A stretch of 64,000 nucleotides of DNA from NCBI GenBank assembly GCA_028868715.1, contig JAGWUB010000001.1, forward strand, positions 53,480-117,479, written 5' to 3'. The DNA is from Patescibacteria group bacterium (lineage in GTDB: Bacteria > Patescibacteriota > Minisyncoccia > Phycocordibacterales > UBA9973). Under the pieces are notes generated by a model. It made no database searches, was not told where the DNA came from, and saw nothing but the letters and a program-made list of their open reading frames with translations. How positions within the stretch are numbered: position 1 is the stretch's first letter; each line of letters starts with the position of its first letter. Shown here piece after piece: positions 3,529 to 63,057 of the stretch. A program made the position numbers and the translations under genes.

Positions 3529-3688
3529 AATAATTATATAGTTATGCTTAAAATTTCATAAAGTTAGTTTATATGTTAGTAATTATACTAGATATAATAG
3601 AAACCAAACTAGGTAATGTGGATAACTATAAATAGTGAACGTCAGTATTGCATTAAAATAATACCCGTGATATACTACTTTAGTAATG

Positions 3689-5658: not shown

Positions 5659-6708
5659 ATGAAAGTAACCGTAAAAAAACTACCAAAAAGCGAGATAGAA
5701 ATCGATGGAGAATTAGACGCTGAACAATTTGAAACTTATTTCAAACAGGCGCTAAAGCTACTAAGTGAAAACTTAAAATTAGATGGATTTAGAAAAGGTA
5801 AAATACCGGAGGCTGTTTTACTGCAAACTATTCCGGAAATGATGATATTAGAAAAGATGGCCGAGCTCGCCCTAAATGAGCATTACCCTAAAATTTTAGA
5901 AGATGAAAAAATTGATGCCATTAGTAGACCGGAAATTTCTATCACTAAATTGGCTCGCAAAAATCCACTAGAATTTAAGATCAAAACTGCTGTTTTGCCG
6001 GAGGTCAAACTTCCCGACTATAAAAATATAGCTAAAAAAATAATCGCGAATATTACTGAAGCTGAAAAAAATATTGTAGTGACAGATGAAGACTTGGAAA
6101 ATACAATAATGGATATCCGAAAATCTCGCGCACCTAAAATACATATGAAGGAAGGCGCCGACAAAACCTCAGGTGAAGAAATAAAGGAAGAATTACCAGA
6201 ATTTAATGACGAGTTTGTCAGAGCGCTTGGGCCATTTAAAGATGTAGCTGATTTTAAAGAAAAATTAAGTGTCAATATCAAGCTAGAGAAGGAAAATGCG
6301 CAGAAGGAAAAAACCAGATTAAATATTATTGAAAAAATAATTGAGGATAGCACTATTGAAGTGCCAGAAATTTTGATTGAAATTGAAATAGATAAAATCT
6401 TGCACCGCATGGAGTCTGACATCACTCAAATGGGTCTAAAGTTTGAAGACTACTTGAAGCATTTGAACAAAACAGTTGATGATTTAAAGAAAGAATTTAG
6501 AACTGATGGAGAGAAAAAAGCTAAGCTCGGACTTATTTTAAATGAGATTGCTAAAGCAGAAAAAATAGCTGTGGATGAAGAGCTACTCGCCAAAGAAGTC
6601 GCGCATATTCTGGAAATGTATAAAGATGCTGACCCAGAGCGAGCTAGAATGCATGCCGAAAATGTTCTCACTAACGAAAAAATCTTTCAATTTTTAGAGA
6701 GTCAGTAA
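5659..6708 (+). CDS. tig: Trigger factor, shortened form.
   Basis: The N-terminus MKVTVKKLPKSEIEIDGELDAEQFE...GFRKGKIP matches the ribosome-binding domain of trigger factor. It lies immediately upstream of clpP, in the conserved order. Confidence 0.8.
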   Translation: MKVTVKKLPKSEIEIDGELDAEQFETYFKQALKLLSENLKLDGFRKGKIPEAVLLQTIPEMMILEKMAELALNEHYPKILEDEKIDAISRPEISITKLARKNPLEFKIKTAVLPEVKLPDYKNIAKKIIANITEAEKNIVVTDEDLENTIMDIRKSRAPKIHMKEGADKTSGEEIKEELPEFNDEFVRALGPFKDVADFKEKLSVNIKLEKENAQKEKTRLNIIEKIIEDSTIEVPEILIEIEIDKILHRMESDITQMGLKFEDYLKHLNKTVDDLKKEFRTDGEKKAKLGLILNEIAKAEKIAVDEELLAKEVAHILEMYKDADPERARMHAENVLTNEKIFQFLESQ

Positions 6709-6745
6709 ATCTTGAAAAAACTCAAAAAAAGAGTATACTAGGGCT

Positions 6746-7351
6746 ATGTTAATCCCAACCGTAATTGAAAAAAGTCAGTTTGGAGAGCGCGCTTATGATA
6801 TTTACTCACGACTACTTCGTGAACGTATCATCTTTTTGAGTGGTCCGATAGACGACCACACGGCAAATATAGTCATTGCTCAGCTCCTATTCCTAGAATC
6901 TGAAGACTCCAAAAAGGATATCTATCTTTATGTAAATTCACCTGGTGGATCCGTAACCTCTACTTTAGCAGTAGTAGACACCATGAATCATGTACGTCCA
7001 GACATTGCTACTTTTTGTGTCGGCTTAGCAGCCTCTGGCGCAGCTATTATCCTATCCGCTGGTAAGAAAGGCAAAAGACATATCTTGCCAAATGCTGAAG
7101 TCATGATTCACCAACCTTTGGGTGGAGTAGAAGGCCAAGCTACAGACATAGCCATCACTGCAAAACATATACTAAAAACTAGAGATAATCTAAATAAAAT
7201 GCTTGCAAAAAATACTGGTAAATCTCTAGCCCAAATTGAAAAAGATGTAGAGCGAGATTTCTTCATGGATGCTGATGAAGCTAAAAAATATGGAATTATT
7301 GACGAAATCGTCACCAAATCCAAACTCCCAGAAAAAAAATCTAGTAATTAG
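6746..7351 (+). CDS. clpP: ATP-dependent Clp protease proteolytic subunit.
   Basis: [19 protein letters not shown]...[14 protein letters not shown]...MIHQP gives the Ser-His catalytic context typical of ClpP. Confidence 0.95.
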
Positions 7352-7352
7352 T

Positions 7353-9242
7353 TTAAATTATTTTAATAGTTCCACCAGTGTTGCCGGCCATGATGTAGTC
7401 GGCAACTTTGTTTTCTACTAAGTCTTCAATGGCGCGCTTGATGGGGCGAGCACCAAACTCCGAATCAAATCCAGCGCTAGCCACCTTGTCGATGAGAGCA
7501 TCGGTGATTTCTAAAGTAATTTTTTTATCTTCATAAAGACGTTCGGCAAATTCAGCAAGCAATAATTTAGTTATCTCTCTGGCCTGCCCCGCATCAAGTG
7601 GTTTGAAAAGCACAACCGCATTAAATCTATTTAAAAATTCTGGAGCAAAGATGCTGTTTTTTATCAAACTATCAACTAAAGCTTTCTTTTCAATATTTGG
7701 ATTAGCAATAATGTCTGCGCTTCCTGCATTGGAAGTAGCGATAATCAAGGCATCTTTGAAGCTCGCCTCTCTCCCAGAGCTACGCGTCAAGCGGCCTTCA
7801 TCTAAGACTTGCAACAGCAGATTGCGAATAAGCACATTAGACTTTTCAAGCTCATCAAAAAATACCAGCGAAAGTGGAGCCTCTTCTATGGCGCTGGTTA
7901 GCCTCTCGGTAAAAGATTCAATAGAAGTAGCCAGTGAAAATTCACTCATATCAAATCGAATCATGGCATTTTTCCTTCCAAAATAACTTTCGGCCAAAAT
8001 CTTGGCAGTATAAGTCTTTCCCACTCCAGTCGGACCCAAGAATAGAAAACTGCCAGCAGGCTTGCTGTGGTCTGCAATCCCCGTACGCAAGCGGACCAAG
8101 GCTTCCGTCACATCTTTGACTGCTTCATCTTGTCCGACAATTTTCCCCCGCATTGAAGCTTCGAGCTCAAGTAGCACCTTCTTTTCATCGGCGCCGATAG
8201 CTCCTATCGGGATGTTGGTTTTATCAGATACCACTTGCCTGACATCATCTATGGTGATCACCTTTCCCAATGTTTTCAGTTCTTCCAAAACCAAGATGGA
8301 CTTCGCAGGCTGAGGTTGATTGCCGATCAGGCGGTCGGTGAGTCGCACAATTTCTAAAATGGCATCGTCGGCAATGGAAATATTGTTTATCCGAGCATTT
8401 TCCTTTAGGATAGATATCGTGTCCTCATCACTAGTTTCTGCTAAGTCTATTTTGGTAAACTTTGAGAGAAATTCTGGATGATTTTTTAATACTTGATCGT
8501 AATTTGAAAAATCGGTGGTTATAATAATTCCCAAGTGAGGCATCGCGAGATAAGGCAAAAGTCGTTCATAAATATCTTCATAGCGATGAATATTTTCAAT
8601 TATGAGAATGATATTTCCGGCGGCCGCAGCTTCGTTTAAACATTTATCAAAGTCTGGCAAGGAAAGTCCTTCAGTAAAAAGTTCTACTACTCGATGGTGA
8701 TGAATGCCGGAGAATGACAAGCCGGATTGCCCTAGCCGTCCTAGGTATGATATCAAGGTAGATTTACCGATTCCAGTGTCCCCCACTAAAAGCACGTTGT
8801 GATTGGAATCTTTCAAGAGTCCCCGTTCGATCATCCGAAGGGCTTTGTCTTTACCGTAAACTGTTTGCGGTGCTAGGCCGACGACATCCCGACTATGTTT
8901 ATTTAAGGTATAAGTTTCGCCATACGAAAGTGAGGCGCCAAAGCTGGGAAGTCTTTCTAAATAGTCTAGGTTAATTTTTATAGGAACGAGTAAAAAGATT
9001 GGAAAGGTCAAAATAGCTAAAAGGGTGAAAACTGAACCGATAATTATCAAAATAATACGAGCAACAAAGCCTATAATTCGTGACAAAAAGAAGAAAACTA
9101 TTTTTTCAAAAATAGTAAAATCGTTTCCTCTCCCAGTGTCCATTTTCCAGGGCAAAAAGAGAGTCTTTAGCAAGAGCGGAATAGAAAAAGCGTTATACGC
9201 ATAGGTCACAAGGTTCTTCCACGATTGTAGTCCTGGGTGCAT
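7353..9242 (-). CDS. Two-domain Clp/Hsp100-type AAA+ ATPase (ClpA/ClpC-like). Two N-terminal transmembrane helices replace the usual N-domain.
   Basis: First AAA domain has Walker A LLVGDTGIGKSTL. Second AAA domain has FLFLGPTGVGKTYTAKILAE...ARPIKRAIEDLV. The N-terminus carries hydrophobic stretches IIGFVARIILIIIGSVFTLLAILTFPIFLLV. Confidence 0.8.
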   Translation of the reverse strand: MHPGLQSWKNLVTYAYNAFSIPLLLKTLFLPWKMDTGRGNDFTIFEKIVFFFLSRIIGFVARIILIIIGSVFTLLAILTFPIFLLVPIKINLDYLERLPSFGASLSYGETYTLNKHSRDVVGLAPQTVYGKDKALRMIERGLLKDSNHNVLLVGDTGIGKSTLISYLGRLGQSGLSFSGIHHHRVVELFTEGLSLPDFDKCLNEAAAAGNIILIIENIHRYEDIYERLLPYLAMPHLGIIITTDFSNYDQVLKNHPEFLSKFTKIDLAETSDEDTISILKENARINNISIADDAILEIVRLTDRLIGNQPQPAKSILVLEELKTLGKVITIDDVRQVVSDKTNIPIGAIGADEKKVLLELEASMRGKIVGQDEAVKDVTEALVRLRTGIADHSKPAGSFLFLGPTGVGKTYTAKILAESYFGRKNAMIRFDMSEFSLATSIESFTERLTSAIEEAPLSLVFFDELEKSNVLIRNLLLQVLDEGRLTRSSGREASFKDALIIATSNAGSADIIANPNIEKKALVDSLIKNSIFAPEFLNRFNAVVLFKPLDAGQAREITKLLLAEFAERLYEDKKITLEITDALIDKVASAGFDSEFGARPIKRAIEDLVENKVADYIMAGNTGGTIKII

Positions 9243-9514: not shown

Positions 9515-11047
9515 ATGAGTATAACATTAATAACGATTCTAATAAGCGCAGTGGCGCTTCTTTTAGGTGCAGGTATCGGATACTACCTACGCTTGATAAT
9601 AGCTTTAGGCAAGCGAAGGTCTATCGAAATAGACATCAAGCAAATGATGGTTGGCGCCAAGGAGGAGGCGCAAAGGATCACCGATGAAGCCAAGAAGGCC
9701 TCTGAAGCCAAGCTAGCGGAATTAAAAGAAGAAGAAAAGAAAAAGGAGCAAGAATTTAAAGAAACTGAAAAAAGACTTATCAAAAAAGATGAGTTTTTGG
9801 ATGCTCGGCAGACAGAAATAGATAAAGAGGTAGAAAACATCAAAACAAAAGTAGAGGAAATAAAAAATATCAAAGAGAAAGTAATAAAAATAGAAGGAGA
9901 AAAGAGAGCTGAACTAGAAAAAGTAGCTGGGCTCTCCGAGGAAGAGGCCAAAGAAGAACTCTTGAAGGAAGTTGAGAAGAAATATGAAGAGGATATTGTA
10001 GTCAGAATCCAAAAAATTGAAAATGTGAATGAGGAAAAATTGGAAAGAAGGGCAAAAGACATTTTGGCCACCTCAATACAACGACTCGCTAAAAGTACTG
10101 CCTCCGAATTGATGACTACCGTCGTATCCATCCCAAACAATGAAATTAAAGGGAAAATTATAGGTAAAGAAGGTAGAAATATCAGGGCTTTTGAAAGAGC
10201 CGCTGGGGTGGAGCTCATCGTGGATGATACTCCGGGCTCAATCGTCATCTCTTCCTTTGATCCTATCAGGAGGCAAGTCGCGCGTCTGGCTTTAGAAAAC
10301 CTAATATTAGACGGACGAATTCAACCAGCCAAAATAGAAGAACTAGTAGAAAAGGCTAAAGAAGAAATAAATAAAATAATCAAAGAAAAAGGCGAGCAAG
10401 CCGTATACGAATGCGGAATCTTCAATCTAGACCCACGCATCGTCGCTATTGTCGGCAGACTTTATTTCCGCACCAGTTACGGACAAAATGTTCTCCAGCA
10501 CTCTGTAGAAATGGCGCACATCGCTGGTATGATTGCCGAAGAATTGGGCGTGGATGTAGCTATAGCTAAAGCCGGAGCCTTAGTGCACGACATCGGAAAA
10601 GCGCTTGACCACGAAGTCCAAGGAACCCACGTAGACATAGGTATGCGTATCTTGCAAAAATTCGGTGCCGACGAGCGAATTATTACCTCGATGAAGAGTC
10701 ACCACGAGCAATATCCATATGAAACGATTGAGTCTGTCATCGTTCAGACAGCTGACGCAATTTCCGGAGGACGACCTGGAGCTCGCCGTGACTCAGTAGA
10801 AAATTACCTCAAGAGACTTCAAGAGCTTGAAGCCTTGGTAAACGCCTTTCCGGCGATTGAAAAGTCATACGCGCTACAGGCGGGACGAGAAATTCGTATA
10901 TTTGTTACTCCAGAAAAAATTACTGACGCCGAAGCCAAGCTAATGGCGCGAGATATTGCAATAAAAATAGAACAAGAACTCAAATATCCAGGCGAAATCA
11001 AAGTCACGATGATACGAGAGACTAGAATTATAGAATACGCGAGATAA
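9515..11047 (+). CDS. rny: Ribonuclease Y.
   Basis: N-terminal TM, a coiled-coil region, a KH domain (GKIIGKEGRNIRAFERAAGVELIVDD) and an HD domain (LVHDIGKALDHE...SHHEQYPYE). Length is 510 aa. Confidence 0.9.
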   Translation: MSITLITILISAVALLLGAGIGYYLRLIIALGKRRSIEIDIKQMMVGAKEEAQRITDEAKKASEAKLAELKEEEKKKEQEFKETEKRLIKKDEFLDARQTEIDKEVENIKTKVEEIKNIKEKVIKIEGEKRAELEKVAGLSEEEAKEELLKEVEKKYEEDIVVRIQKIENVNEEKLERRAKDILATSIQRLAKSTASELMTTVVSIPNNEIKGKIIGKEGRNIRAFERAAGVELIVDDTPGSIVISSFDPIRRQVARLALENLILDGRIQPAKIEELVEKAKEEINKIIKEKGEQAVYECGIFNLDPRIVAIVGRLYFRTSYGQNVLQHSVEMAHIAGMIAEELGVDVAIAKAGALVHDIGKALDHEVQGTHVDIGMRILQKFGADERIITSMKSHHEQYPYETIESVIVQTADAISGGRPGARRDSVENYLKRLQELEALVNAFPAIEKSYALQAGREIRIFVTPEKITDAEAKLMARDIAIKIEQELKYPGEIKVTMIRETRIIEYAR

Positions 11048-11200: not shown

Positions 11201-11473
11201 ATGAATAAACAAGCATTAGCTGATTTAGTACATGTAAAGCTTGGTGGTACAAAGGTACAAGCCGAGGAAGTTGTTGATGGATTGTTTGATGCCATCATCG
11301 CGACTTTGAAAAAAGGTGGTGAAGTTTCAATCGCTGGCTTCGGAATCTTTTCCGTAAAGCAAAGAGCAGCTCGTATGGCTCGTAACCCAAAAACTGGAGA
11401 ACAAGTCAAAGTAGCCGCAAAAAGAGTTCCAAAATTCCGACCTGCAAAAGGTTTGAAGGACACTGTTGCTTAA
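11201..11473 (+). CDS. hup: DNA-binding protein HU.
   Basis: MNKQALADLV...GFGIFSVKQRAARMARNPKTGEQVKVAAKRVPKFRPAKGLKD is the HU/IHF fold signature. Confidence 0.9.
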   Translation: MNKQALADLVHVKLGGTKVQAEEVVDGLFDAIIATLKKGGEVSIAGFGIFSVKQRAARMARNPKTGEQVKVAAKRVPKFRPAKGLKDTVA

Positions 11474-11506
11474 ATTTTATCTCGCGAGACAAAATATAGC
11501 ATAAAC

Positions 11507-11533
11507 AAAAAACACCCTTATCGGGTGTTTTTT
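11507..11533. terminator. Bidirectional intrinsic terminator between hup (+) and lexA (-).
   Basis: The aaaaaacaccc-ttatc-gggtgtttttt hairpin has A/T runs on both sides. Confidence 0.6.
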
Positions 11534-11544
11534 GTTTATGCATT

Positions 11545-12138
11545 TTAATACTTCCTGATAACTGCCTTCACGACGGCATTTATATTTAAAGAGTGCTCTG
11601 GGTAAATTGGTTTGTATTTCTTGTTAGCTGGTTCGAGCCAAACTTTGTTTCCAGACTTGCGGAAATACTTCATGGTAAATTCTCCGTCTACTTCAGCGAT
11701 AACTATTTGCATATCACGGGCGATATTTGCTCGCTCCACGAGAACCATATCCCCTTTTTCAATGTGCGCATCAATCATAGAATCACCATCCACTTCGAGC
11801 ATATAAGTGAGTGATTTATTTTTTACCAACATATCGTCTAGGTTCACCGTGTCTACTTGTTCTTCTTCAACCGTAGCTGGTAGTCCAGCTGTCACTAGCC
11901 CAGCCATTTGAATACTGTTAAGATTTTCTGCAAAAGACTCTGACGGAATAAGTCTGCCCAAGTGATCCTTGGCCACCAACCCTGCTTCCATTAATTTCTC
12001 CACCACCTTAAACACGGCGTTCTTGGATTTGAAACCAAAGAGCTTCATCATCTCAGAATAGGTGGGCATTCGTTTATTTTTGGAGTAGAAAGATTCTATC
12101 TCGGTTTGATGAGAATTATGCATAGATATTCTTCTCAA
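11545..12138 (-). CDS. lexA: LexA repressor (S24 peptidase family).
   Basis: N-terminal winged helix-turn-helix. C-terminal autoprotease part reads VDGDSMIDAHIEKGDMVLVE...KYFRKSGNKVWLEPANKKY. Confidence 0.85.
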   Translation of the reverse strand: MRRISMHNSHQTEIESFYSKNKRMPTYSEMMKLFGFKSKNAVFKVVEKLMEAGLVAKDHLGRLIPSESFAENLNSIQMAGLVTAGLPATVEEEQVDTVNLDDMLVKNKSLTYMLEVDGDSMIDAHIEKGDMVLVERANIARDMQIVIAEVDGEFTMKYFRKSGNKVWLEPANKKYKPIYPEHSLNINAVVKAVIRKY

Positions 12139-12333
12139 AGAAGAGGTGAATTATCCTTTGCCCAAAGCTTTGCCTGGTATGGTAGCGAACTTTCTGTAAG
12201 AGTAGTTTATGGTCTCTCGCCTCCTTGAAGTAAGTCTCGCCTTGGAGAATCTTTAAATCAATTTTTTTATTAATCTTTTGTATTTCTCGTTCTAACATTT
12301 TTAAATATTGTGATTGAGACATATAATTGCCCA
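12116..12333 (-). CDS. Small coiled-coil ORF of about 72 aa, co-transcribed upstream of lexA, hypothetical.
   Basis: Begins at an in-frame Met downstream of the mapped promoter (MGNYMSQSQYLKMLEREIQKINKK...). It overlaps the lexA start by 23 nt. There is no recognisable Shine-Dalgarno sequence and no homology evidence. Confidence 0.3.
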
Positions 12334-12371
12334 TTTGCTGGGTGGTTAAAATACTAATTAACGACTTAACT

Positions 12372-12400
12372 AGTATAAGTGAACGAGCGTTCACTGTCAA
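12372..12400 (-). promoter_or_regulatory. Near-consensus sigma70 promoter (TTGACA, 17-nt spacer, TATACT) with a Cheo-type LexA box GAAC-N4-GTTC inside the spacer.
   Basis: The minus strand reads TTGACAgtGAACgctcGTTCacTTATACT. The palindrome tGAACGAGCGTTCa on the plus strand is at 12381-12392. Confidence 0.65.
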
Positions 12401-12439
12401 CAATATACCTGTGGATAACCCCCACACCTTTTGTTTTAT

Positions 12440-13990
12440 TTAAACATTCACCTTGGGTCGATATTGGATGGCTTCTAGGATGTGCTTGCCTTCAATCTCG
12501 GGAGAGTTTTCTAGGTCAGCGATGGTACGGGCAATTTTGATGACTCGGTGGTAAGCTCGCGCCGAGAGGCCGAGCCTCTCGGCGCTATCATCTAGCAAGT
12601 CGCGCACTTCTTTTTTTAATTTCACAATCCCCGACAAATCTTTCACATTCATTTCACTGTTGGTATTTATTTTTCTGCCGAGTTTTCCAAATCTATTCTT
12701 TTGAATCTCGCGCGCTCCTGCTACGCGCTCTTTTATCTTTTCGCTTTTCTCTCCATTCCCCTCTCCGCCGAGCTTCTTGTAATCCACGTTGCCGACCGAA
12801 ACCCAAAGATCAATCCGGTCCATGATTGGCCCAGAAAGTTTTCTTTTATATCTATCCAAATCAGATGGTTTACAAATACATGCCTTTTTCTTACTCCCAG
12901 CATTTCCACAAGGGCAAGGATTCATCGCCGCCACCAGTATAAAGTTTGATGGAAAGATAGCTGAGCCTTTAGCTCGAGAAATGGAAACAATATTATCTTC
13001 GAGAGGCTGACGCAAAGATTCTATGACTCTCTTTTCAAATTCTGGGAATTCATCTAAAAATAAAACTCCACGGTGCGCCAAAGTCACTTCCCCAGGCTTC
13101 GGATAAGTTCCGCCGCCAATCAATGATACGTACGAAGAAGTGTGGTGTGGGGCGCGAAATGGCGGAAAGCAAACCAGTTCACCTTGGGTACTACCAGCCA
13201 CTGAATGAATTCCAGTAATTTCTAACACTTCTTCAGTACTTAAGTCTGGCAATAATCCAGAAAATACTCTGGCGAGCATTGTCTTGCCAGTACCGGGCGG
13301 ACCATACATAGCAATGTTGTGTCCGCCGGCAGCTGCAATTTCCAATCCTCGTTTAGCAGTTTCTTGTCCACGAATATCAGAAAAGTCTCCACCTTTTATT
13401 TCTTTTTTATAACTTATGTTGGTTTTAGGTTGGCTAGGAATTTTCTTGGGGATTTTTTCACTTCCCCTAGCTGGAATATCTAAATGTTCTATGACTTCTC
13501 TCAAGTTGCTAGCTCCAAAAATTTTTATGCCTTCCACCAGCGCTGCTTCGACTGCATTTTCTTTTGGTAAATATATTTCTTCAAATCCACGCCTTTTTGC
13601 TTCTTCAGCCAGTGGCAAGGCTCCACGGATACTGCGCAGAGTGCCATCGAGACCTAGCTCGCCTAGAAAAATCTTCTTTTCTGAATCAAATTTTATTTCC
13701 CCAGCCGAGAGCAAATAGGCGACGGCAATCGCCAGATCAAAAAACGGCCCTTCTTTTTTCAAGTCGGCCGGTGACAATGATACTATTATTTTTTGATTTT
13801 TAGCTTTGGGAGATTTAAAACCAGAATTTTTTATTGCCCCACTGACTCTGTCTTTGGATTCATCTACTGCTTTATCAGGGAGACCCACCACGCTAAAGGT
13901 GTGTAGACCCTTAGATAAGTCTACCTCGATAGTCACGATCGCTCCTTTCAGTAAATTCACTTGTGCTGAATAAACTTTTGCGAAACTCAT
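12440..13990 (-). CDS. comM: Mg-chelatase-like AAA+ ATPase of the YifB/ComM family.
   Basis: The N-terminus resembles the Lon-type protease-like domain at the start of YifB/ComM proteins (MSFAKVYSAQVNLLKGAIVTIEVD...). Walker A is YGPPGTGKTMLA. The C-terminal segment is ComM-like. Confidence 0.85.
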   Translation of the reverse strand: MSFAKVYSAQVNLLKGAIVTIEVDLSKGLHTFSVVGLPDKAVDESKDRVSGAIKNSGFKSPKAKNQKIIVSLSPADLKKEGPFFDLAIAVAYLLSAGEIKFDSEKKIFLGELGLDGTLRSIRGALPLAEEAKRRGFEEIYLPKENAVEAALVEGIKIFGASNLREVIEHLDIPARGSEKIPKKIPSQPKTNISYKKEIKGGDFSDIRGQETAKRGLEIAAAGGHNIAMYGPPGTGKTMLARVFSGLLPDLSTEEVLEITGIHSVAGSTQGELVCFPPFRAPHHTSSYVSLIGGGTYPKPGEVTLAHRGVLFLDEFPEFEKRVIESLRQPLEDNIVSISRAKGSAIFPSNFILVAAMNPCPCGNAGSKKKACICKPSDLDRYKRKLSGPIMDRIDLWVSVGNVDYKKLGGEGNGEKSEKIKERVAGAREIQKNRFGKLGRKINTNSEMNVKDLSGIVKLKKEVRDLLDDSAERLGLSARAYHRVIKIARTIADLENSPEIEGKHILEAIQYRPKVNV

Positions 13991-14011
13991 ATTGTTTATG
14001 AATTATTAAAA

Positions 14012-14368
14012 TTACTTTTCTAGATGTTTTTTACAAGTTCTAGCCGCTGGATTGGCTTCTAGTCGGGCTGCTTCAATGTCTTTTTTACAAACTTCACACT
14101 TTCCAAAAGACTCTCTATTTATCCCCTTCAGTGCTTTCAAAATCATATTTAGTCTAGGCTCCAATGTCTTAATCATAGAACTTCGGGCCTCGAAATCCTC
14201 AAACCTATCCGCCATGTCATTTTGGTCCGACTGTGGAGAGCTAATCTCTTCTGGGGTCGCTTCCCATTCACCCGTATCAGGATCTAGTTTGCCCATATCG
14301 CGCAATTCTCCTAAAAGCATGTCGCGTTCCTTCTCTAATTTTTCTTTAATTTTTTTCTTATCTAACAT
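14012..14368 (-). CDS. DksA/TraR-family zinc-finger protein. The start is taken at an internal Met to avoid the upstream hairpin.
   Basis: CEVCKKDIEAARLEANPAARTCKKH matches a DksA/TraR-type finger with a C-x2-C ... C-x2-H variant. A coiled-coil region precedes it. Confidence 0.55.
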   Translation of the reverse strand: MLDKKKIKEKLEKERDMLLGELRDMGKLDPDTGEWEATPEEISSPQSDQNDMADRFEDFEARSSMIKTLEPRLNMILKALKGINRESFGKCEVCKKDIEAARLEANPAARTCKKHLEK

Positions 14369-14502
14369 GCCCAAATGATAACACTTTAATTTCCTATAGC
14401 AAGCCCCCACACCTTTTGTTTTTAACGAAAGGTGTAGGGGCAAGTACTATTTTTTTGTTTAATTCTGTGCTAGAATATTCGAGTGTTAATAATTTAATAT
14501 TG

Positions 14503-14635
14503 TTTTATCGAGAGTGGTGGTAGAGAATTGGCTCAGCGACCCCACAGCAACCTAAAATATAAGGTGCTAACTCCAACCCTAACCGGGAAAGATAATTAGT
14601 CATTATATTTCCTGTGTTATCAGGAATTTTTTGTT
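14503..14635 (+). ncRNA. SAM-I (S-box) riboswitch with a terminator expression platform, upstream of metK.
   Basis: P1 is ttatc...gataa. It contains AGAGtGGtGGtAGAGA, GCAACC, and AAGGTGCTAACTCC (consensus AAGGUGCCAAUUCC). The terminator hairpin ttcctgtgttatcaggaa plus tttttt is at 14609-14633. Confidence 0.65.
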
Positions 14636-14650
14636 TTCAATTATCTCACC

Positions 14651-15628
14651 ATGAAAAAAACAGCCGAATTTGTAAGCCCAAAACATCCCGACAAAATTTG
14701 CGATTTCATCGCCGACAGTATTTTAGATGCTTACTTGGAGGGCGACAGAGAAAGCCGAGTTGCGATTGAAATAATGGGCGGACACAATTTGATCACTATC
14801 AACGGTGAAGTTACTTCCAAGAGTAGTCCGAATATAGAAAAGCTGGTGAAAGAAATTGTCGGAGAAAGTTATAAAGTTGTAACCAATATTGTTTTACAAA
14901 GTACAGAAATTGCAGAAGGTGTGAACACCGGCGGAGCAGGAGACCAAGGAATTATGAAAGGTTATGCCACAAATGAGACAGCCGAATACCTACCACTAGA
15001 ATACGTACTGGCTCGTGATTTGTGCCAAAAAATATTTAATGTGTATCCCTACGACGGCAAAACCCAAGTAACTATAGAGGGTGACAAAGTGCTCACTGTG
15101 GTTGCCAGTTTTCAAAATACAAAAAATGACGAACTTTTAAAATTAACTAAAGAAATAATTAAATCTAATGAATATTTGATAAATCCAGCGGGAGAATGGA
15201 CATATGGTGGTTTTGACGCGGACACCGGACTTTCCGGTAGAAAATTAATCATAGACAACTATGGTCCGCAAATAGCAATCGGTGGTGGCTCTTTTTCAGG
15301 TAAAGATGCCACCAAGGTAGATCGCTCTGGTGCCTATATGGCGCGTTATGTCGCTAAAAATTTAGTTGCGAGTGGATATGGCAAAGAAGTATTAGTCTCT
15401 GTGGCGTATGCTATCGGCATGGCTGAACCATTGATGATAGAAGCTGTAAATGAAAAGGGTGAAGACTTGGCAGATATTGTAAAGAAAAATTTTGATTTTA
15501 AACCACTTGCCATCATCACCCGCCTCGGCTTGCGTGATCCGATCTTTCGCCAAACCGCCACCTATGGCCACTTCGGCAAACCAAATTTACCATGGGAAAA
15601 AGTTGAGAAAATAAAAGTAAAAAAGTAA
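14651..15628 (+). CDS. metK: S-adenosylmethionine synthetase, a short 325-aa form.
   Basis: Carries HPDKICD, GDQGIMKGYATNET, GLSGRKLIIDNYG...GGGSFSGKDATKVDRSGAYMARYVAKN and YGHFGKP motifs. Confidence 0.85.
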   Translation: MKKTAEFVSPKHPDKICDFIADSILDAYLEGDRESRVAIEIMGGHNLITINGEVTSKSSPNIEKLVKEIVGESYKVVTNIVLQSTEIAEGVNTGGAGDQGIMKGYATNETAEYLPLEYVLARDLCQKIFNVYPYDGKTQVTIEGDKVLTVVASFQNTKNDELLKLTKEIIKSNEYLINPAGEWTYGGFDADTGLSGRKLIIDNYGPQIAIGGGSFSGKDATKVDRSGAYMARYVAKNLVASGYGKEVLVSVAYAIGMAEPLMIEAVNEKGEDLADIVKKNFDFKPLAIITRLGLRDPIFRQTATYGHFGKPNLPWEKVEKIKVKK

Positions 15629-29202: not shown

Positions 29203-29597
29203 TATCTCTATCTAAAGACGAACCTGAATTAAATGATAAAATAACACAAACTTATAAATATCCTAGCATTTTACATAGAAAATGCCAACTTTTTTGCATT
29301 AAAATAGCATTAACTAGTTATCCACAGTGCGTTTGACTTGCGACTTCTATTGGTCTACCCTATAAATGTAGCCCCGAAGAGAAGTCTGGCACTAGATGAC
29401 TGAACCAGAGAGATGACAGTAACCATCGTGAGAACCTTTGTTTGCAGTACTAATAGGTCGTCCTGTAATTCTACCCTTATTTCATAGGGTCAGAAAAGGC
29501 AATCTCGTGATATTTAGCTTGTTTTATAAAACATCAATTTAAAAAATTCGGCTATATCTTAGCTTCTTACTCGTTACTTGGGGTATTTTTTATCCTT

Positions 29598-32216: not shown

Positions 32217-32454
32217 TTTGGTTGTGTTTCATAAGAAACATGTTTCACATGAAACCTTTTATCGAAATTTTGTCTTTTAGTAAAATATCCTTATATAACA
32301 ACATATTTTCAATATAATGACACTAAAAAGACAGATTATAAATATGTCCTTTATACACATACTAACAGTTTTATCCACAGTTTTGTGTAAAACCCTTATA
32401 GCTAAAGCTTTTGCAAAAGGACAATAATTTTAAATAACTTATAGGCTATTTTTG

Positions 32455-60320: not shown

Positions 60321-60340
60321 TTATCCACAGATTATCAACA
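60321..60340 (+). promoter_or_regulatory. DnaA boxes upstream of dnaA: TTATCCACA (perfect) and TTATCAACA (one mismatch).
   Basis: The plus strand reads cTTATCCACAgaTTATCAACAgg, about 50 nt upstream of dnaA. Confidence 0.7.
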
Positions 60341-60389
60341 GGGTTATTAATTATTTTAATATTTTACTTTTACAAGAAGGTAGTATAAT

Positions 60390-61745
60390 GTGAATCACAT
60401 GGATACAAAACAGCTTTGGAAAAATTGTCTAGTTGAAATTGAGGCGAATTTATCGAAAGCAAATTTTAGCACTTGGTTTAAAAATACATCTATTTTAAAA
60501 GAGGAAATGGGTGTTATTTATATAAGGGTGCCAAATGAATTTGTTCGGGATTGGTTAATGAATAAATATCATAAACTTATAACTAAAACCCTAGCTGATG
60601 CTCATGAAAATATGCGAGCTGTTGAGTACGTAATCACTAAAATTGAGCCAAATATGCAGGAAATAGAAACAATAAACAAAGTTTCTTATATAAACAAGGA
60701 ATTGCCGTTAAGAGATCTCTATATAAACCCAGAAGATAACCTAAATCCACGCTATCACTTCAATTCTTTTATCGTCGGAGCATTTAATGAGCTAGCTTAC
60801 GCTGCTTCTCAGGCGATCATAGACAGTCCTGGGACTAAATACAATCCATTTTTTGTCTATGGAGCGACTGGACTTGGTAAAACGCACCTGATACAGGCTG
60901 TAGGTAATACAATAAAAGAGAAATATGAAAACAAAAAGGTGCATTATATGACTTTGGAAAAATTTGCGACTGATTTTATAAATTCATTACAAAGCAATAA
61001 GGCCAACTCATTCAAAGAAAAATATCGTAAGTATGATCTCCTGATCATAGACGATATTCAGTTTATTGGTAAGATGGAAAAAATACAAGAAGAATTATTC
61101 CACACATTTAACACCTTTTATGAAAGCAACAAGCAAATTATCTTTTCTTCCGACAAACACCCAAACTATATTCCGGAATTAGCTGATCGTTTGAAGTCTA
61201 GATTTGCGGCTGGGATGATAGTAGATGTGTCTGCGCCAGAATTTGAATCTCGTTTGGCAATTTTAAAGATAAAATTAAGAGAACTTAATATTGAGCTGGA
61301 GCCAGAAATAGTAGAGTATATCGCGAGCGCCGTAGAGGGGAATATTCGTGAACTTGAAGGTAGCCTAAATATAATAGTCTGCCAATATAGGTTGAAAAAT
61401 AGGCCTCTTCCGCTCTCTGAGGTCAAAAGTCTACTCAAAAACAACATGAAGCCGAAGAAAAATATAGCCATAAAAGAGGTTGTAAAAATAGTAAGTGACT
61501 ATTATAAAATAGAAGAACTATCTATTTATGAAAAAATAAGGAAGAAGGAAATAGTAAAAGCGAGACAAGTAATCATGTATCTACTGCGAGAAGATTTCAA
61601 CATCTCATATCCATTGATTGGGCAAAAATTAGGAGGTAAAGATCACACGACCGTCATCCACTCTTGTTTAAAAATTAAAGCAGATTTAAAAAATGATCCA
61701 CAGTTGTTACAAGAATTGGAACAGATAAGAATTATGTTTAAATAG
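60390..61745 (+). CDS. dnaA: Chromosomal replication initiator DnaA.
   Basis: AAA+ domain GATGLGKTHL, and a C-terminal DNA-binding domain ...KARQVIMYLLRE...GGKDHTTVIHS. Confidence 0.95.
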   Translation: MNHMDTKQLWKNCLVEIEANLSKANFSTWFKNTSILKEEMGVIYIRVPNEFVRDWLMNKYHKLITKTLADAHENMRAVEYVITKIEPNMQEIETINKVSYINKELPLRDLYINPEDNLNPRYHFNSFIVGAFNELAYAASQAIIDSPGTKYNPFFVYGATGLGKTHLIQAVGNTIKEKYENKKVHYMTLEKFATDFINSLQSNKANSFKEKYRKYDLLIIDDIQFIGKMEKIQEELFHTFNTFYESNKQIIFSSDKHPNYIPELADRLKSRFAAGMIVDVSAPEFESRLAILKIKLRELNIELEPEIVEYIASAVEGNIRELEGSLNIIVCQYRLKNRPLPLSEVKSLLKNNMKPKKNIAIKEVVKIVSDYYKIEELSIYEKIRKKEIVKARQVIMYLLREDFNISYPLIGQKLGGKDHTTVIHSCLKIKADLKNDPQLLQELEQIRIMFK

Positions 61746-61959
61746 TTGTTGATAAGTACCGTTAATGGTGTTGGTAAAAAATGATAAGTAAGTAAAGTTT
61801 TAAATTGTTAAATAATAATTATTAATTAAAAAAAAGTTATTAGATTAAAATTAAATAATAATTAGTTAAAATAATTATATTTAATCAATTAAAATAAATT
61901 TATCCACTTATCAACACAACTAACAGTATTAGTAATTTAAATATATAAAATATAAACAT
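61746..61959. other. Candidate oriC: the dnaA-dnaN intergenic AT-rich region with DnaA boxes.
   Basis: A 214-bp spacer, very AT-rich. It contains TGTTGATAA (61747-61755, minus-strand box), TTATCCACT (61900-61908) and TTATCAACA (61908-61916). Confidence 0.7.
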
Positions 61960-63057
61960 ATGAAATTAGAATGTAAAATAGAAGAACTTAAAAATGGAAT
62001 TTCTAAGGCAGAGAGAGTTATCGGAAAAAATCTTACTCTACCAATTTTAAATTCAATCCTATTAAGCACAGGAAAAAATTCTTTAATCCTAAGAGCCACC
62101 AATTTAAGTATTGGTGTTGAGATTGAAATTCCAGCTAAGGTGGCACAAGAGGGGGTGATAGCTATTTCCGGTTCAGTATTAAATAATATATTTTCAAACT
62201 TTTCTCAAAATGAAGATGTACTTCTCGAAGGTATAGACGGAAATTTATTAATTACAACAAAAAAAAGTAAAATAAAATTAAAAGGTCAACCACACGATGA
62301 CTTTCCAACAATACCGAAAGTTAGTGGGGTGGATTTTGAGATAGAGTCAAAAAAATTAATAGACGGTATAAAATCAGTCTATTACAGCTCTTTAATCTCA
62401 GATATAAAACCTGAGATTTCAAGTGTTTTTATATATACTAAAGATGATAATTTAGTTTTTGTATCAACTGATTCCTTTAGATTAGCAGAAAAGAAAATCA
62501 AAACAAAAAACCTCCCAGATATTATTGGTATTCTTATTCCATTTAAAAATGTTTCAGAAATACTTAGGATTTTTGGGGAGTTTACGGGAGTTTTAAAGCT
62601 ATGTTTTAATAAAAACGCAATCTCTTTTTCTTCAAATAATATATATTTAACATCCAGAGTAATTGATGGCATTTTTCCAGACTATCACCAAATCATCCCC
62701 AAAGAAGCTACTTCCACTGTGGTGGTGCTGAAACAGGACTTACTGAACGCACTAAAGATATCAAATATTTTTTCAGATAAATTCAACCAGGTAAATTTAG
62801 CAGTCAAGCCAAAGGAAAAGATTTTTGAGCTTTCCTCTACCAACAACGACATAGGTGAAAATAAAACATATTTGGACGCCACCATCACCGGAGAGAATGT
62901 GGAACTTGGCTTTAATTATAAATATTTTTTAGATTGTTTCCAATCAATCACGACTGATAGTATTTCTATAAAATTTTCTGGAGCAACTCGACCAATCGTT
63001 ATTTCAGCTGTTTCTGATTCCTCGTTTACATATCTCATTATGCCAATGAATAAGTAA
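61960..63057 (+). CDS. dnaN: DNA polymerase III beta sliding clamp.
   Basis: 365 aa with a three-domain clamp architecture. It sits immediately downstream of dnaA. Confidence 0.9.
   Translation: MKLECKIEELKNGISKAERVIGKNLTLPILNSILLSTGKNSLILRATNLSIGVEIEIPAKVAQEGVIAISGSVLNNIFSNFSQNEDVLLEGIDGNLLITTKKSKIKLKGQPHDDFPTIPKVSGVDFEIESKKLIDGIKSVYYSSLISDIKPEISSVFIYTKDDNLVFVSTDSFRLAEKKIKTKNLPDIIGILIPFKNVSEILRIFGEFTGVLKLCFNKNAISFSSNNIYLTSRVIDGIFPDYHQIIPKEATSTVVVLKQDLLNALKISNIFSDKFNQVNLAVKPKEKIFELSSTNNDIGENKTYLDATITGENVELGFNYKYFLDCFQSITTDSISIKFSGATRPIVISAVSDSSFTYLIMPMNK

Follow-up and report, generated by a model that had tools for sequence, protein, structure and literature searches.

What controls lexA in bacteria of the candidate phyla radiation, and what is the small protein that is encoded ahead of it? 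The question is raised by a locus in a 64,000-nt stretch of contig JAGWUB010000001.1 (Patescibacteria group bacterium, assembly GCA_028868715.1), which was analyzed as a whole and is called the window below. One promoter, with a predicted LexA operator (SOS box) in its spacer and a DnaA-box consensus upstream, precedes a small gene and lexA. Our analysis, which rests on sequence comparison, makes it likely that the locus is a LexA-autorepressed, translationally coupled two-gene operon, probably modulated by DnaA, and that it represents the SOS master locus of this Nomurabacteria/Paceibacteria genome. Coordinates refer to the window, and the features of the lexA operon were read on the minus strand, from 12418 to 11499 (Table 1).

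Predicted promoter and operator of the lexA operon

The predicted promoter was near-consensus and of the sigma-70 type (11/12 in the promoter scan), and its 17-nt spacer was occupied by a palindrome with the Cheo-type core GAAC-N4-GTTC. The same order of elements (TTGACA, 17 nt, TATACT, with GAAC-N4-GTTC inside) had been proposed in a sequence-only reading of the window, and direct reading of the minus strand confirmed it. GAAC-N4-GTTC was seen twice in the window versus 0.58 expected, a count reached by 13 of 100 shuffles, and the 16-mer, when up to three mismatches were allowed, was seen twice versus 1.14 expected. These counts are not significant alone; thus, the case rests on conservation.

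The comparison set consisted of the window and 80 loci from different related species genomes (Nomurabacteria/Paceibacteria), i.e., 81 loci; downstream sequence was present for 79 of the 80 fetched relatives. The module TTGACA/GTGAACG-N2-CGTTCAC/TATACT was found within 400 nt 5' of the small open reading frame (ORF) in all 81 loci. The operator GTGAACGNNCGTTCAC (GTGAACG-N2-CGTTCAC) was likewise present in 81/81 loci, with GCTC as its center in 45 and the complement GAGC in 32; the -35 hexamer was TTGACA in 80 loci and the -10 hexamer was TATACT in 79. The spacer was 17 nt long in 48 loci and 18 nt long in the other 33. The proteins of the compared genomes were 65-90% identical, and the leader from the -10 hexamer to the ATG ranged from 30 to 144 nt; an invariant 16-bp palindrome in spite of diverged proteins and variable leaders indicates selection on a binding site. 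This comparative evidence supports the earlier proposal of a Cheo-type operator before the small-ORF/lexA unit.

Judged by its sequence, the gene downstream of the small ORF is a bona fide lexA. Its product matched NCBIfam TIGR00498 with 122.3 bits (cutoff 110.95) over residues 9-191 and Peptidase_S24 with an E-value of 7.8e-27. Residues A79-G80, S115, and K152 aligned with the A84-G85 cleavage site and the S119 and K156 dyad of Escherichia coli LexA (residues numbered by hand count in an alignment to E. coli LexA structures). The N-terminus scored below the gathering score of Pfam LexA_DNA_bind (PF01726; 16.1 bits versus 23.7, E = 0.0098); the alignments with TIGR00498 and with LexA chains from PDB spanned this N-terminal region.

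A self-repressed lexA with a GAAC-N4-GTTC box is textbook knowledge. The locus shares with the Cheo-type autoregulated lexA of Bacillus subtilis and other bacteria of the Gram-positive type the core overlapping the lexA promoter as well as, by alignment, the S24 self-cleaving domain with its Ala-Gly site and Ser/Lys dyad. It differs in that the box is a 16-bp palindrome filling the spacer between the -35 and -10 hexamers, lexA is the second gene of the operon, and a conserved DnaA box is attached. A study of the Patescibacteria SOS network by Sanchez-Osuna, Barbe, and Erill (2017, Environ Microbiol 19:3465) is grouped, in a paper citing it, with reports of direct-repeat LexA motifs.

The comparison was extended to distant loci, located by exact look-ups, and to metagenome contigs, which were scanned for the 16-mer with a filter against the canonical context. 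In distant locus L082, a related box, GAACGATCGTTC, lay over the TATACT -10 hexamer of a cassette composed of a second full-length lexA paralogue and a Y-family (IMS) polymerase gene; such a cassette is a classic SOS target and the kind of gene expected under an SOS box. Several entries of the small-protein family were miscalled with extended N-termini reading ...GERSFTYT... or ...VNERSL...; these extensions are translations of GAACGCTCGTTCACTTATACT (operator plus -10), which places the box just upstream of the gene even in divergent members. Ten metagenome contigs with a GC content of 0.46-0.70 carried TTGACA-(G)-GTGAACG..CGTTCAC-TATAAT-like promoters driving an S24/LexA gene directly, with neither the small ORF nor the DnaA box. 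Operator-in-spacer autoregulation of lexA is therefore widespread, and the Paceibacteria version adds the small gene.

The scan also retrieved GTGAACG-N2-CGTTCAC as tandem pairs before TetR-like genes in L097 (10802-10844) and L129 (1009-1050), two unrelated GC-richer metagenome contigs from other phyla; thus, the palindrome is not exclusive to LexA. The identical 16-mer at these sites would fit a palindrome serving a non-LexA repressor, e.g., of the TetR type, with its place upstream of lexA incidental. We regard this as very improbable: the palindrome was invariant before the lexA operon in the 81 loci and was kept in distant lineages, its core equals the LexA box of the Gram-positive type, a related box stood at the second lexA and translesion-polymerase cassette, the ten contigs lacking the DnaA box had the palindrome in the spacer of a promoter driving lexA directly, and no TetR-type gene adjoined the palindrome in the window.

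The leader of the small gene in the window contained no clear Shine-Dalgarno sequence and gave no Rfam family match; its predicted RNA fold was not significant (z = -1.1). A mini-palindrome, AGTTAA-GTCG-TTAATT, was located at 12371-12356. Across the comparison set, 64 of 81 loci had GTCG 6-10 nt (or 14 nt) past the -10 hexamer, where it frequently occupied the loop of a small hairpin with a covarying stem (TTAA/TTAA, GACC/GGTC, AGCC/GGCT). Lineage-specific structured inserts, absent from the window, were observed in the leaders of L002, L004, L009, L019, L028, L029, L037, L051, L063, and others; for example, 9 loci contained the GC-rich hairpin CCTCCCCCT...AGGGGGAGG and 4 loci a AGCTAGTTAGCTAATAGCT palindrome, and another insert was a hairpin whose stem covaried and whose CTATTGA loop was conserved.

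DnaA box at the lexA promoter

The DnaA box, mentioned only in passing in the earlier reading, is as conserved as the operator. It was exact in 75 of the 81 loci and deviated at one position in 5 others; its orientation was constant, and its distance to the -35 hexamer was 9 nt in 62 loci, 8 nt in 13, 10 nt in 4, and 7 nt in 1. In the window the site was located where it had been reported, with a gap of 9 nt to the -35 hexamer instead of the 10 nt given before. In distant lineages the spacing was 0 nt (L082, L083, and L193) or 19-20 nt (L084 and L183), i.e., roughly whole helical turns in a small number of cases. The four complete metagenome contigs with the DnaA box all had the small ORF before lexA. 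A hairpin TGTGG-N7-CCACA surrounding the box was considered as a comM terminator and rejected, as it was not conserved in relatives.

In the window, exact TTATCCACA occurred 5 times versus 0.67 expected, a number reached by none of 100 shuffles, and all five copies were intergenic. One of them, at 60321, lay just upstream of dnaA. Boxes with a single mismatch were found next to it, at 60332, and in the dnaA-dnaN spacer, where there were four at 61694-61916. The replication origin probably lies in this region (60321-61916), some 48 kb away from the lexA operon. The DnaA protein encoded in the window possessed the Bac_DnaA_C domain (E = 1.1e-23) and a GGKDHTTVIH stretch, which we take to be the base-contact motif of E. 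coli DnaA. Of the remaining three copies, one preceded a 474-aa gene that lacks annotation and diverges from nusA, another preceded a gene for a LysM/M23 peptidase, and the third was in a spacer between tRNA and CCA-adding-enzyme genes. In this small genome, DnaA may regulate transcription more widely.

The promoters of nrdAB and dnaA in E. coli are modulated by DnaA and have boxes immediately 5' of the -35 hexamer. The lexA promoter resembles them in having a consensus DnaA box one helical turn upstream of the -35 hexamer; here, the target is an SOS master operon, and neither a DnaA box at a lexA promoter nor DnaA regulation of lexA was reported in the literature searched. This lack of precedent, together with the intergenic and promoter-proximal location of all five window copies, which would suit a general promoter motif, could be explained if TTATCCACA were a UP-like element, or were bound by some other lineage-specific factor, and matched the DnaA consensus by chance. 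Such an origin is clearly unlikely. The motif is the exact universal DnaA-box 9-mer, exact or nearly exact copies of it surround dnaA and occupy the dnaA-dnaN spacer, the window DnaA has a canonical DNA-binding domain, and the orientation is fixed, with the spacing confined to 7-10 nt in close relatives and to 0 and 19-20 nt in distant ones. Moreover, just 3 further exact copies, 2 of which fell in coding sequence, were present in 439 kb of flanking DNA from the 80 relatives; the motif is thus absent from neighboring promoters, and the DnaA box is not a general promoter element.

The small gene and its probable coupling to lexA

The small ORF was followed directly by lexA in 79 of 79 relatives with downstream sequence. 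In the window the ATG of lexA lies inside ...TATGCATAA, within the last codons of the small gene, and the two genes overlap by 8 nt (ATGCATAA); the overlap noted in the sequence-only reading was thereby corroborated. A start of lexA further upstream, at TTG 12138, was rejected since homologues align from ATG 12123. Among 80 loci, the 8-nt overlap (...NATGCNTAA) was present in 45, a gap of 0-9 nt in 26, and a gap of 15-124 nt in 9. The frequent Tyr-Ala or His-Ala at the C-terminus of the small protein results from the overlap with the lexA ATG. Distant members of the family, with about 30-45% identity, kept the arrangement of the small gene and lexA. In L082 (4203-4364), L084 (4203-4385), and L162, a second small ORF of 53-63 aa was observed between the small gene and lexA; its N-terminus was weakly similar to that of the first (e.g., QFKQLIKNELARL), and it may be a diverged tandem copy.

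Since the two genes overlap and lexA has no obvious ribosome-binding site, the translation of lexA seems to depend on the small ORF, so that the latter could be a mere leader (an upstream ORF) controlling lexA translation and encoding a functionless peptide. This is hardly credible, as the amino acid sequence was conserved over hundreds of clusters with invariant residues, the protein received a confident structure prediction, and the nucleotide variation had the pattern of a coding sequence. In 80 sequences, the positional entropy was 1.135 at the third codon position versus 0.49 and 0.31 at the first and second, and an excess of synonymous differences was observed only in the frame of the small gene (14452 synonymous to 9011 non-synonymous, versus 2665:21921 and 1282:22936 in the other two frames). 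The predicted small ORF is a real gene under protein-level selection, and the conservation in relatives that had been suggested as a check on it was found.

The ORF counted from the first ATG (12334) encodes 72 aa, as reported earlier; the gene itself is shorter, since homologues start at the second ATG (12322), giving 68 aa. They begin with MSQ(S/T)QYLKMLE, and the window protein with MSQSQYLK... The family comprised 493 clusters at 90% identity, all from Nomurabacteria, Parcubacteria, or Paceibacterota. A profile search of 1.84 billion representatives yielded 264 clusters at 50% identity, all of about 60-70 aa, one of which was labelled Taylorbacteria.

The N-terminal 45 residues were unusually well conserved, and N18, I21, D22, G28, Y31, and H38 were invariant in the family alignment of 41 sequences. 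An AlphaFold2 model of the protein (pLDDT, the predicted local distance difference test score, of 83) consisted of a hairpin of two soluble helices with an overhanging C-terminal tail. The net charge of the window protein was about +7 by hand count. The last 12 residues of the family were hydrophobic and aromatic, and the final residue was Phe in 58 of 126 representatives; only one outlier, P0222, had a real C-terminal membrane segment. Searches of the small protein against Pfam gave nothing beyond Lon_lid at E = 0.048, and NCBIfam gave no match. Nothing better than E = 0.01 was obtained for the family in PHROGs (P0133 with phrog_4863, of unknown function), and the family profile had 0 matches to PDB chains at E-values up to 10.

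Proposed mechanism and role of the small protein

According to established LexA biology, a LexA dimer bound to the spacer would block RNA polymerase. DNA damage would activate RecA and lead to self-cleavage of LexA at Ala79-Gly80 by the Ser115/Lys152 dyad; the promoter would open, and the small protein and new LexA would be made together, probably by translational coupling. Fresh LexA would then re-repress the operon and reset the switch. The position and conservation of the DnaA box suggest that DnaA, bound at about -50, adds an input on replication status, as at other DnaA-modulated promoters; the sign of this input may be either way.

The most uncertain step concerns the small protein. We tentatively prefer the reading, though at less than even odds, that it is the conserved SOS output of the lineage, a short-lived checkpoint effector with a conserved cell-cycle target in division or replication initiation. 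Its gene comes first, and no other product of the operon is non-regulatory. Small, lexA-adjacent division inhibitors of several phyla offer a possible parallel, and Sda, a checkpoint protein with a hairpin fold, has an input from DnaA similar to the one predicted here. A stronger version, in which Paceibacteria wire DnaA and LexA onto one promoter and the ultra-conserved basic hairpin of 65-70 aa is the main checkpoint effector halting division or replication initiation, i.e., a non-homologous counterpart of Sda, SulA, or YneA, is somewhat unlikely.

Genes of SOS division inhibitors are located next to lexA in several bacteria: yneA in Bacillus, sosA in Staphylococcus, Rv2719c in Mycobacterium, and sulA, downstream of lexA, in Pseudomonas. 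The present locus likewise links a small gene under presumed LexA control to lexA, and the Pseudomonas case shares the operon organization. However, the small gene here is upstream of lexA, co-directional with it, and coupled to it instead of divergent or downstream, and its product shows much higher conservation than is usual for such inhibitors and lacks homology to them, a LysM domain, a transmembrane segment, and the SulA fold. The earlier suggestion of an SOS-induced effector of the YneA/SulA kind thus holds as to position, as the small gene was the first gene under the operator promoter in every locus; homology, fold, the LysM domain, and the transmembrane segment did not bear it out.

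Sda of Bacillus subtilis is a small, rapidly degraded helical-hairpin replication checkpoint protein whose promoter contains DnaA boxes. The two systems share a small two-helix hairpin (here, in the model) and a DnaA-box promoter, and both plausibly report replication or damage status. Unlike the small gene, sda is outside any lexA operon and has no LexA box, and no sequence similarity between the proteins was detectable. Sda targets sporulation kinases, and these organisms are not known to sporulate.

Several points weigh against the proposed mechanism and an effector role. Since the small gene is upstream of lexA and coupled to it, its product would be made whenever LexA is, which is awkward for a toxic division inhibitor, and no link of the small protein to division was seen. 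A LysM domain and a transmembrane segment are absent, and the tail is too short for a membrane span; the hydrophobic moment of the tail (0.526) was no better than that of shuffled tails (0.494, standard deviation 0.15). Foldseek comparison of the model with PDB and the BFVD viral library returned only generic helical hairpins (E >= 0.56). The co-occurrence of the DnaA box with the small ORF may reflect nothing more than shared ancestry. As to the operator, its occurrence before TetR-like genes means that the sequence alone is no proof of LexA binding. We failed to find a further box in the 64-kb window, including upstream of recA, uvrA, or comM, where additional sites had been anticipated, or in 446 kb of the relatives' flanks except for chance matches in coding sequence; with this single box, the regulon is essentially unseen. 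A crude regular-expression motif scan gave no match in the window to signatures of RecA, UvrA/B/D, RuvB, RecN, DinB, or Nrd.

Another explanation makes the small protein a part of the switch itself, a stoichiometric partner of LexA or RecA tuning DNA binding or self-cleavage. A precedent is gp7 of phage GIL01, a small protein that binds Bacillus LexA, enhances its DNA binding, and inhibits RecA-mediated cleavage (PMC4551915). A tie to LexA would account for the constant pairing and for the coupling of synthesis: the gene order was strict, most loci had the overlap or a gap of at most 9 nt, distant members kept the arrangement, and the upstream coupled position implies that the small protein is made along with LexA even without induction. 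The very conserved N-terminal 45 residues with their invariant polar residues would suit a fixed protein partner, and the small helical fold of the model is compatible with an adaptor. However, gp7 is phage-encoded and has neither a sequence nor a fold match with the small protein; the family resembled no PDB chain, gp7 included, at E-values up to 10, and the fold search of PDB gave nothing specific. Furthermore, LexA here looks complete and ordinary, and LexA of other lineages uses the operator-in-spacer promoter without the small gene. We consider a partner role rather unlikely, though nearly as probable as that of an effector; other kinds of role take up the rest of the probability. In the comparisons that could be made, the small protein belonged neither with SulA nor with the YneA/SosA-type inhibitors or gp7; a functional likeness to them is possible.

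Genomic context

The operon is bounded by comM/yifB on the upstream side and by an intrinsic terminator on the downstream side (Table 1). A gene for a DksA/TraR-type zinc-finger protein was observed upstream on the same strand, preceding comM in the window; in L085 such a gene (9543-9905) lay directly 5' of the small ORF, and in L082 and L084 the operon came after mraY-ftsW-murG instead. On the plus strand of the window, a SAM-I (S-adenosylmethionine) riboswitch (Rfam RF00162, 56.5 bits) was found at 14502-14598, upstream of an ORF at 14651-15628 whose product looked like an S-adenosylmethionine synthetase by sequence.

Table 1. Coordinates of the lexA operon, its control elements, and other features discussed in the text (window positions unless a locus is named; a dot in the strand column marks a feature without a strand)
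Feature	Position	Strand	Remarks
DnaA-box consensus TTATCCACA	12410-12418	-	9 nt 5' of -35; about -53 to -45 from the inferred start site (expected near 12365)
-35 hexamer TTGACA	12395-12400	-	direct reading and promoter scan
Predicted LexA operator (SOS box) GTGAACGCTCGTTCAC	12379-12394	.	16-bp palindrome GTGAACG-CT-CGTTCAC filling the spacer
Single T between palindrome and -10	12378	-	direct reading
-10 hexamer TATACT	12372-12377	-	direct reading and promoter scan
5' leader, 49 nt, -10 to ATG	12323-12371	-	
Small gene, 68 aa, MSQSQYLKMLEREIQKINKKIDLKILQGETYFKEARDHKLLLQKVRYHTRQSFGQRIIHLFFEKNIYA	12116-12322	-	ATG 12322, stop 12118-12116
lexA, 192 aa	11545-12123	-	ATG 12123, stop at 11545
Bidirectional intrinsic terminator, 19-bp stem	11499-11541	.	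between lexA and the convergent HU gene; operon end
HU gene	11201-11473		convergent with lexA
comM/yifB gene and DksA/TraR-type zinc-finger gene preceding it	12440-14443	-	upstream of the operon; comM/yifB ends at 12440
dnaA	60390-61745		in the window
dnaN	61960-63057		in the window
Exact TTATCCACA, intergenic	3617-3625	-	
Exact TTATCCACA, intergenic	29318-29326	+	
Exact TTATCCACA, intergenic	32371-32379	+	
Second full-length lexA paralogue, 189 aa (L082)	6155-6749		IMS polymerase gene 6742-7998 follows

Significance

The new elements at this locus are the upstream coupled small gene of an unannotated family and the fixed DnaA box at the lexA promoter; an earlier description of parts of it is possible. 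The family consists of hundreds of clusters with invariant polar residues and is locked to lexA across a class of the candidate phyla radiation. The perfect DnaA box is fixed beside the SOS promoter and was found here only where the small gene was present. The hosts have minimal genomes with few regulators and do not grow alone, and the conserved module is a rare handle on their cell-cycle control. A very well-studied pathway would gain a new component, testable in heterologous hosts, if the small protein is an SOS output or a LexA partner. If DnaA regulates lexA, the locus would represent a simple natural case in which the signals of replication status and DNA damage are joined at one promoter.

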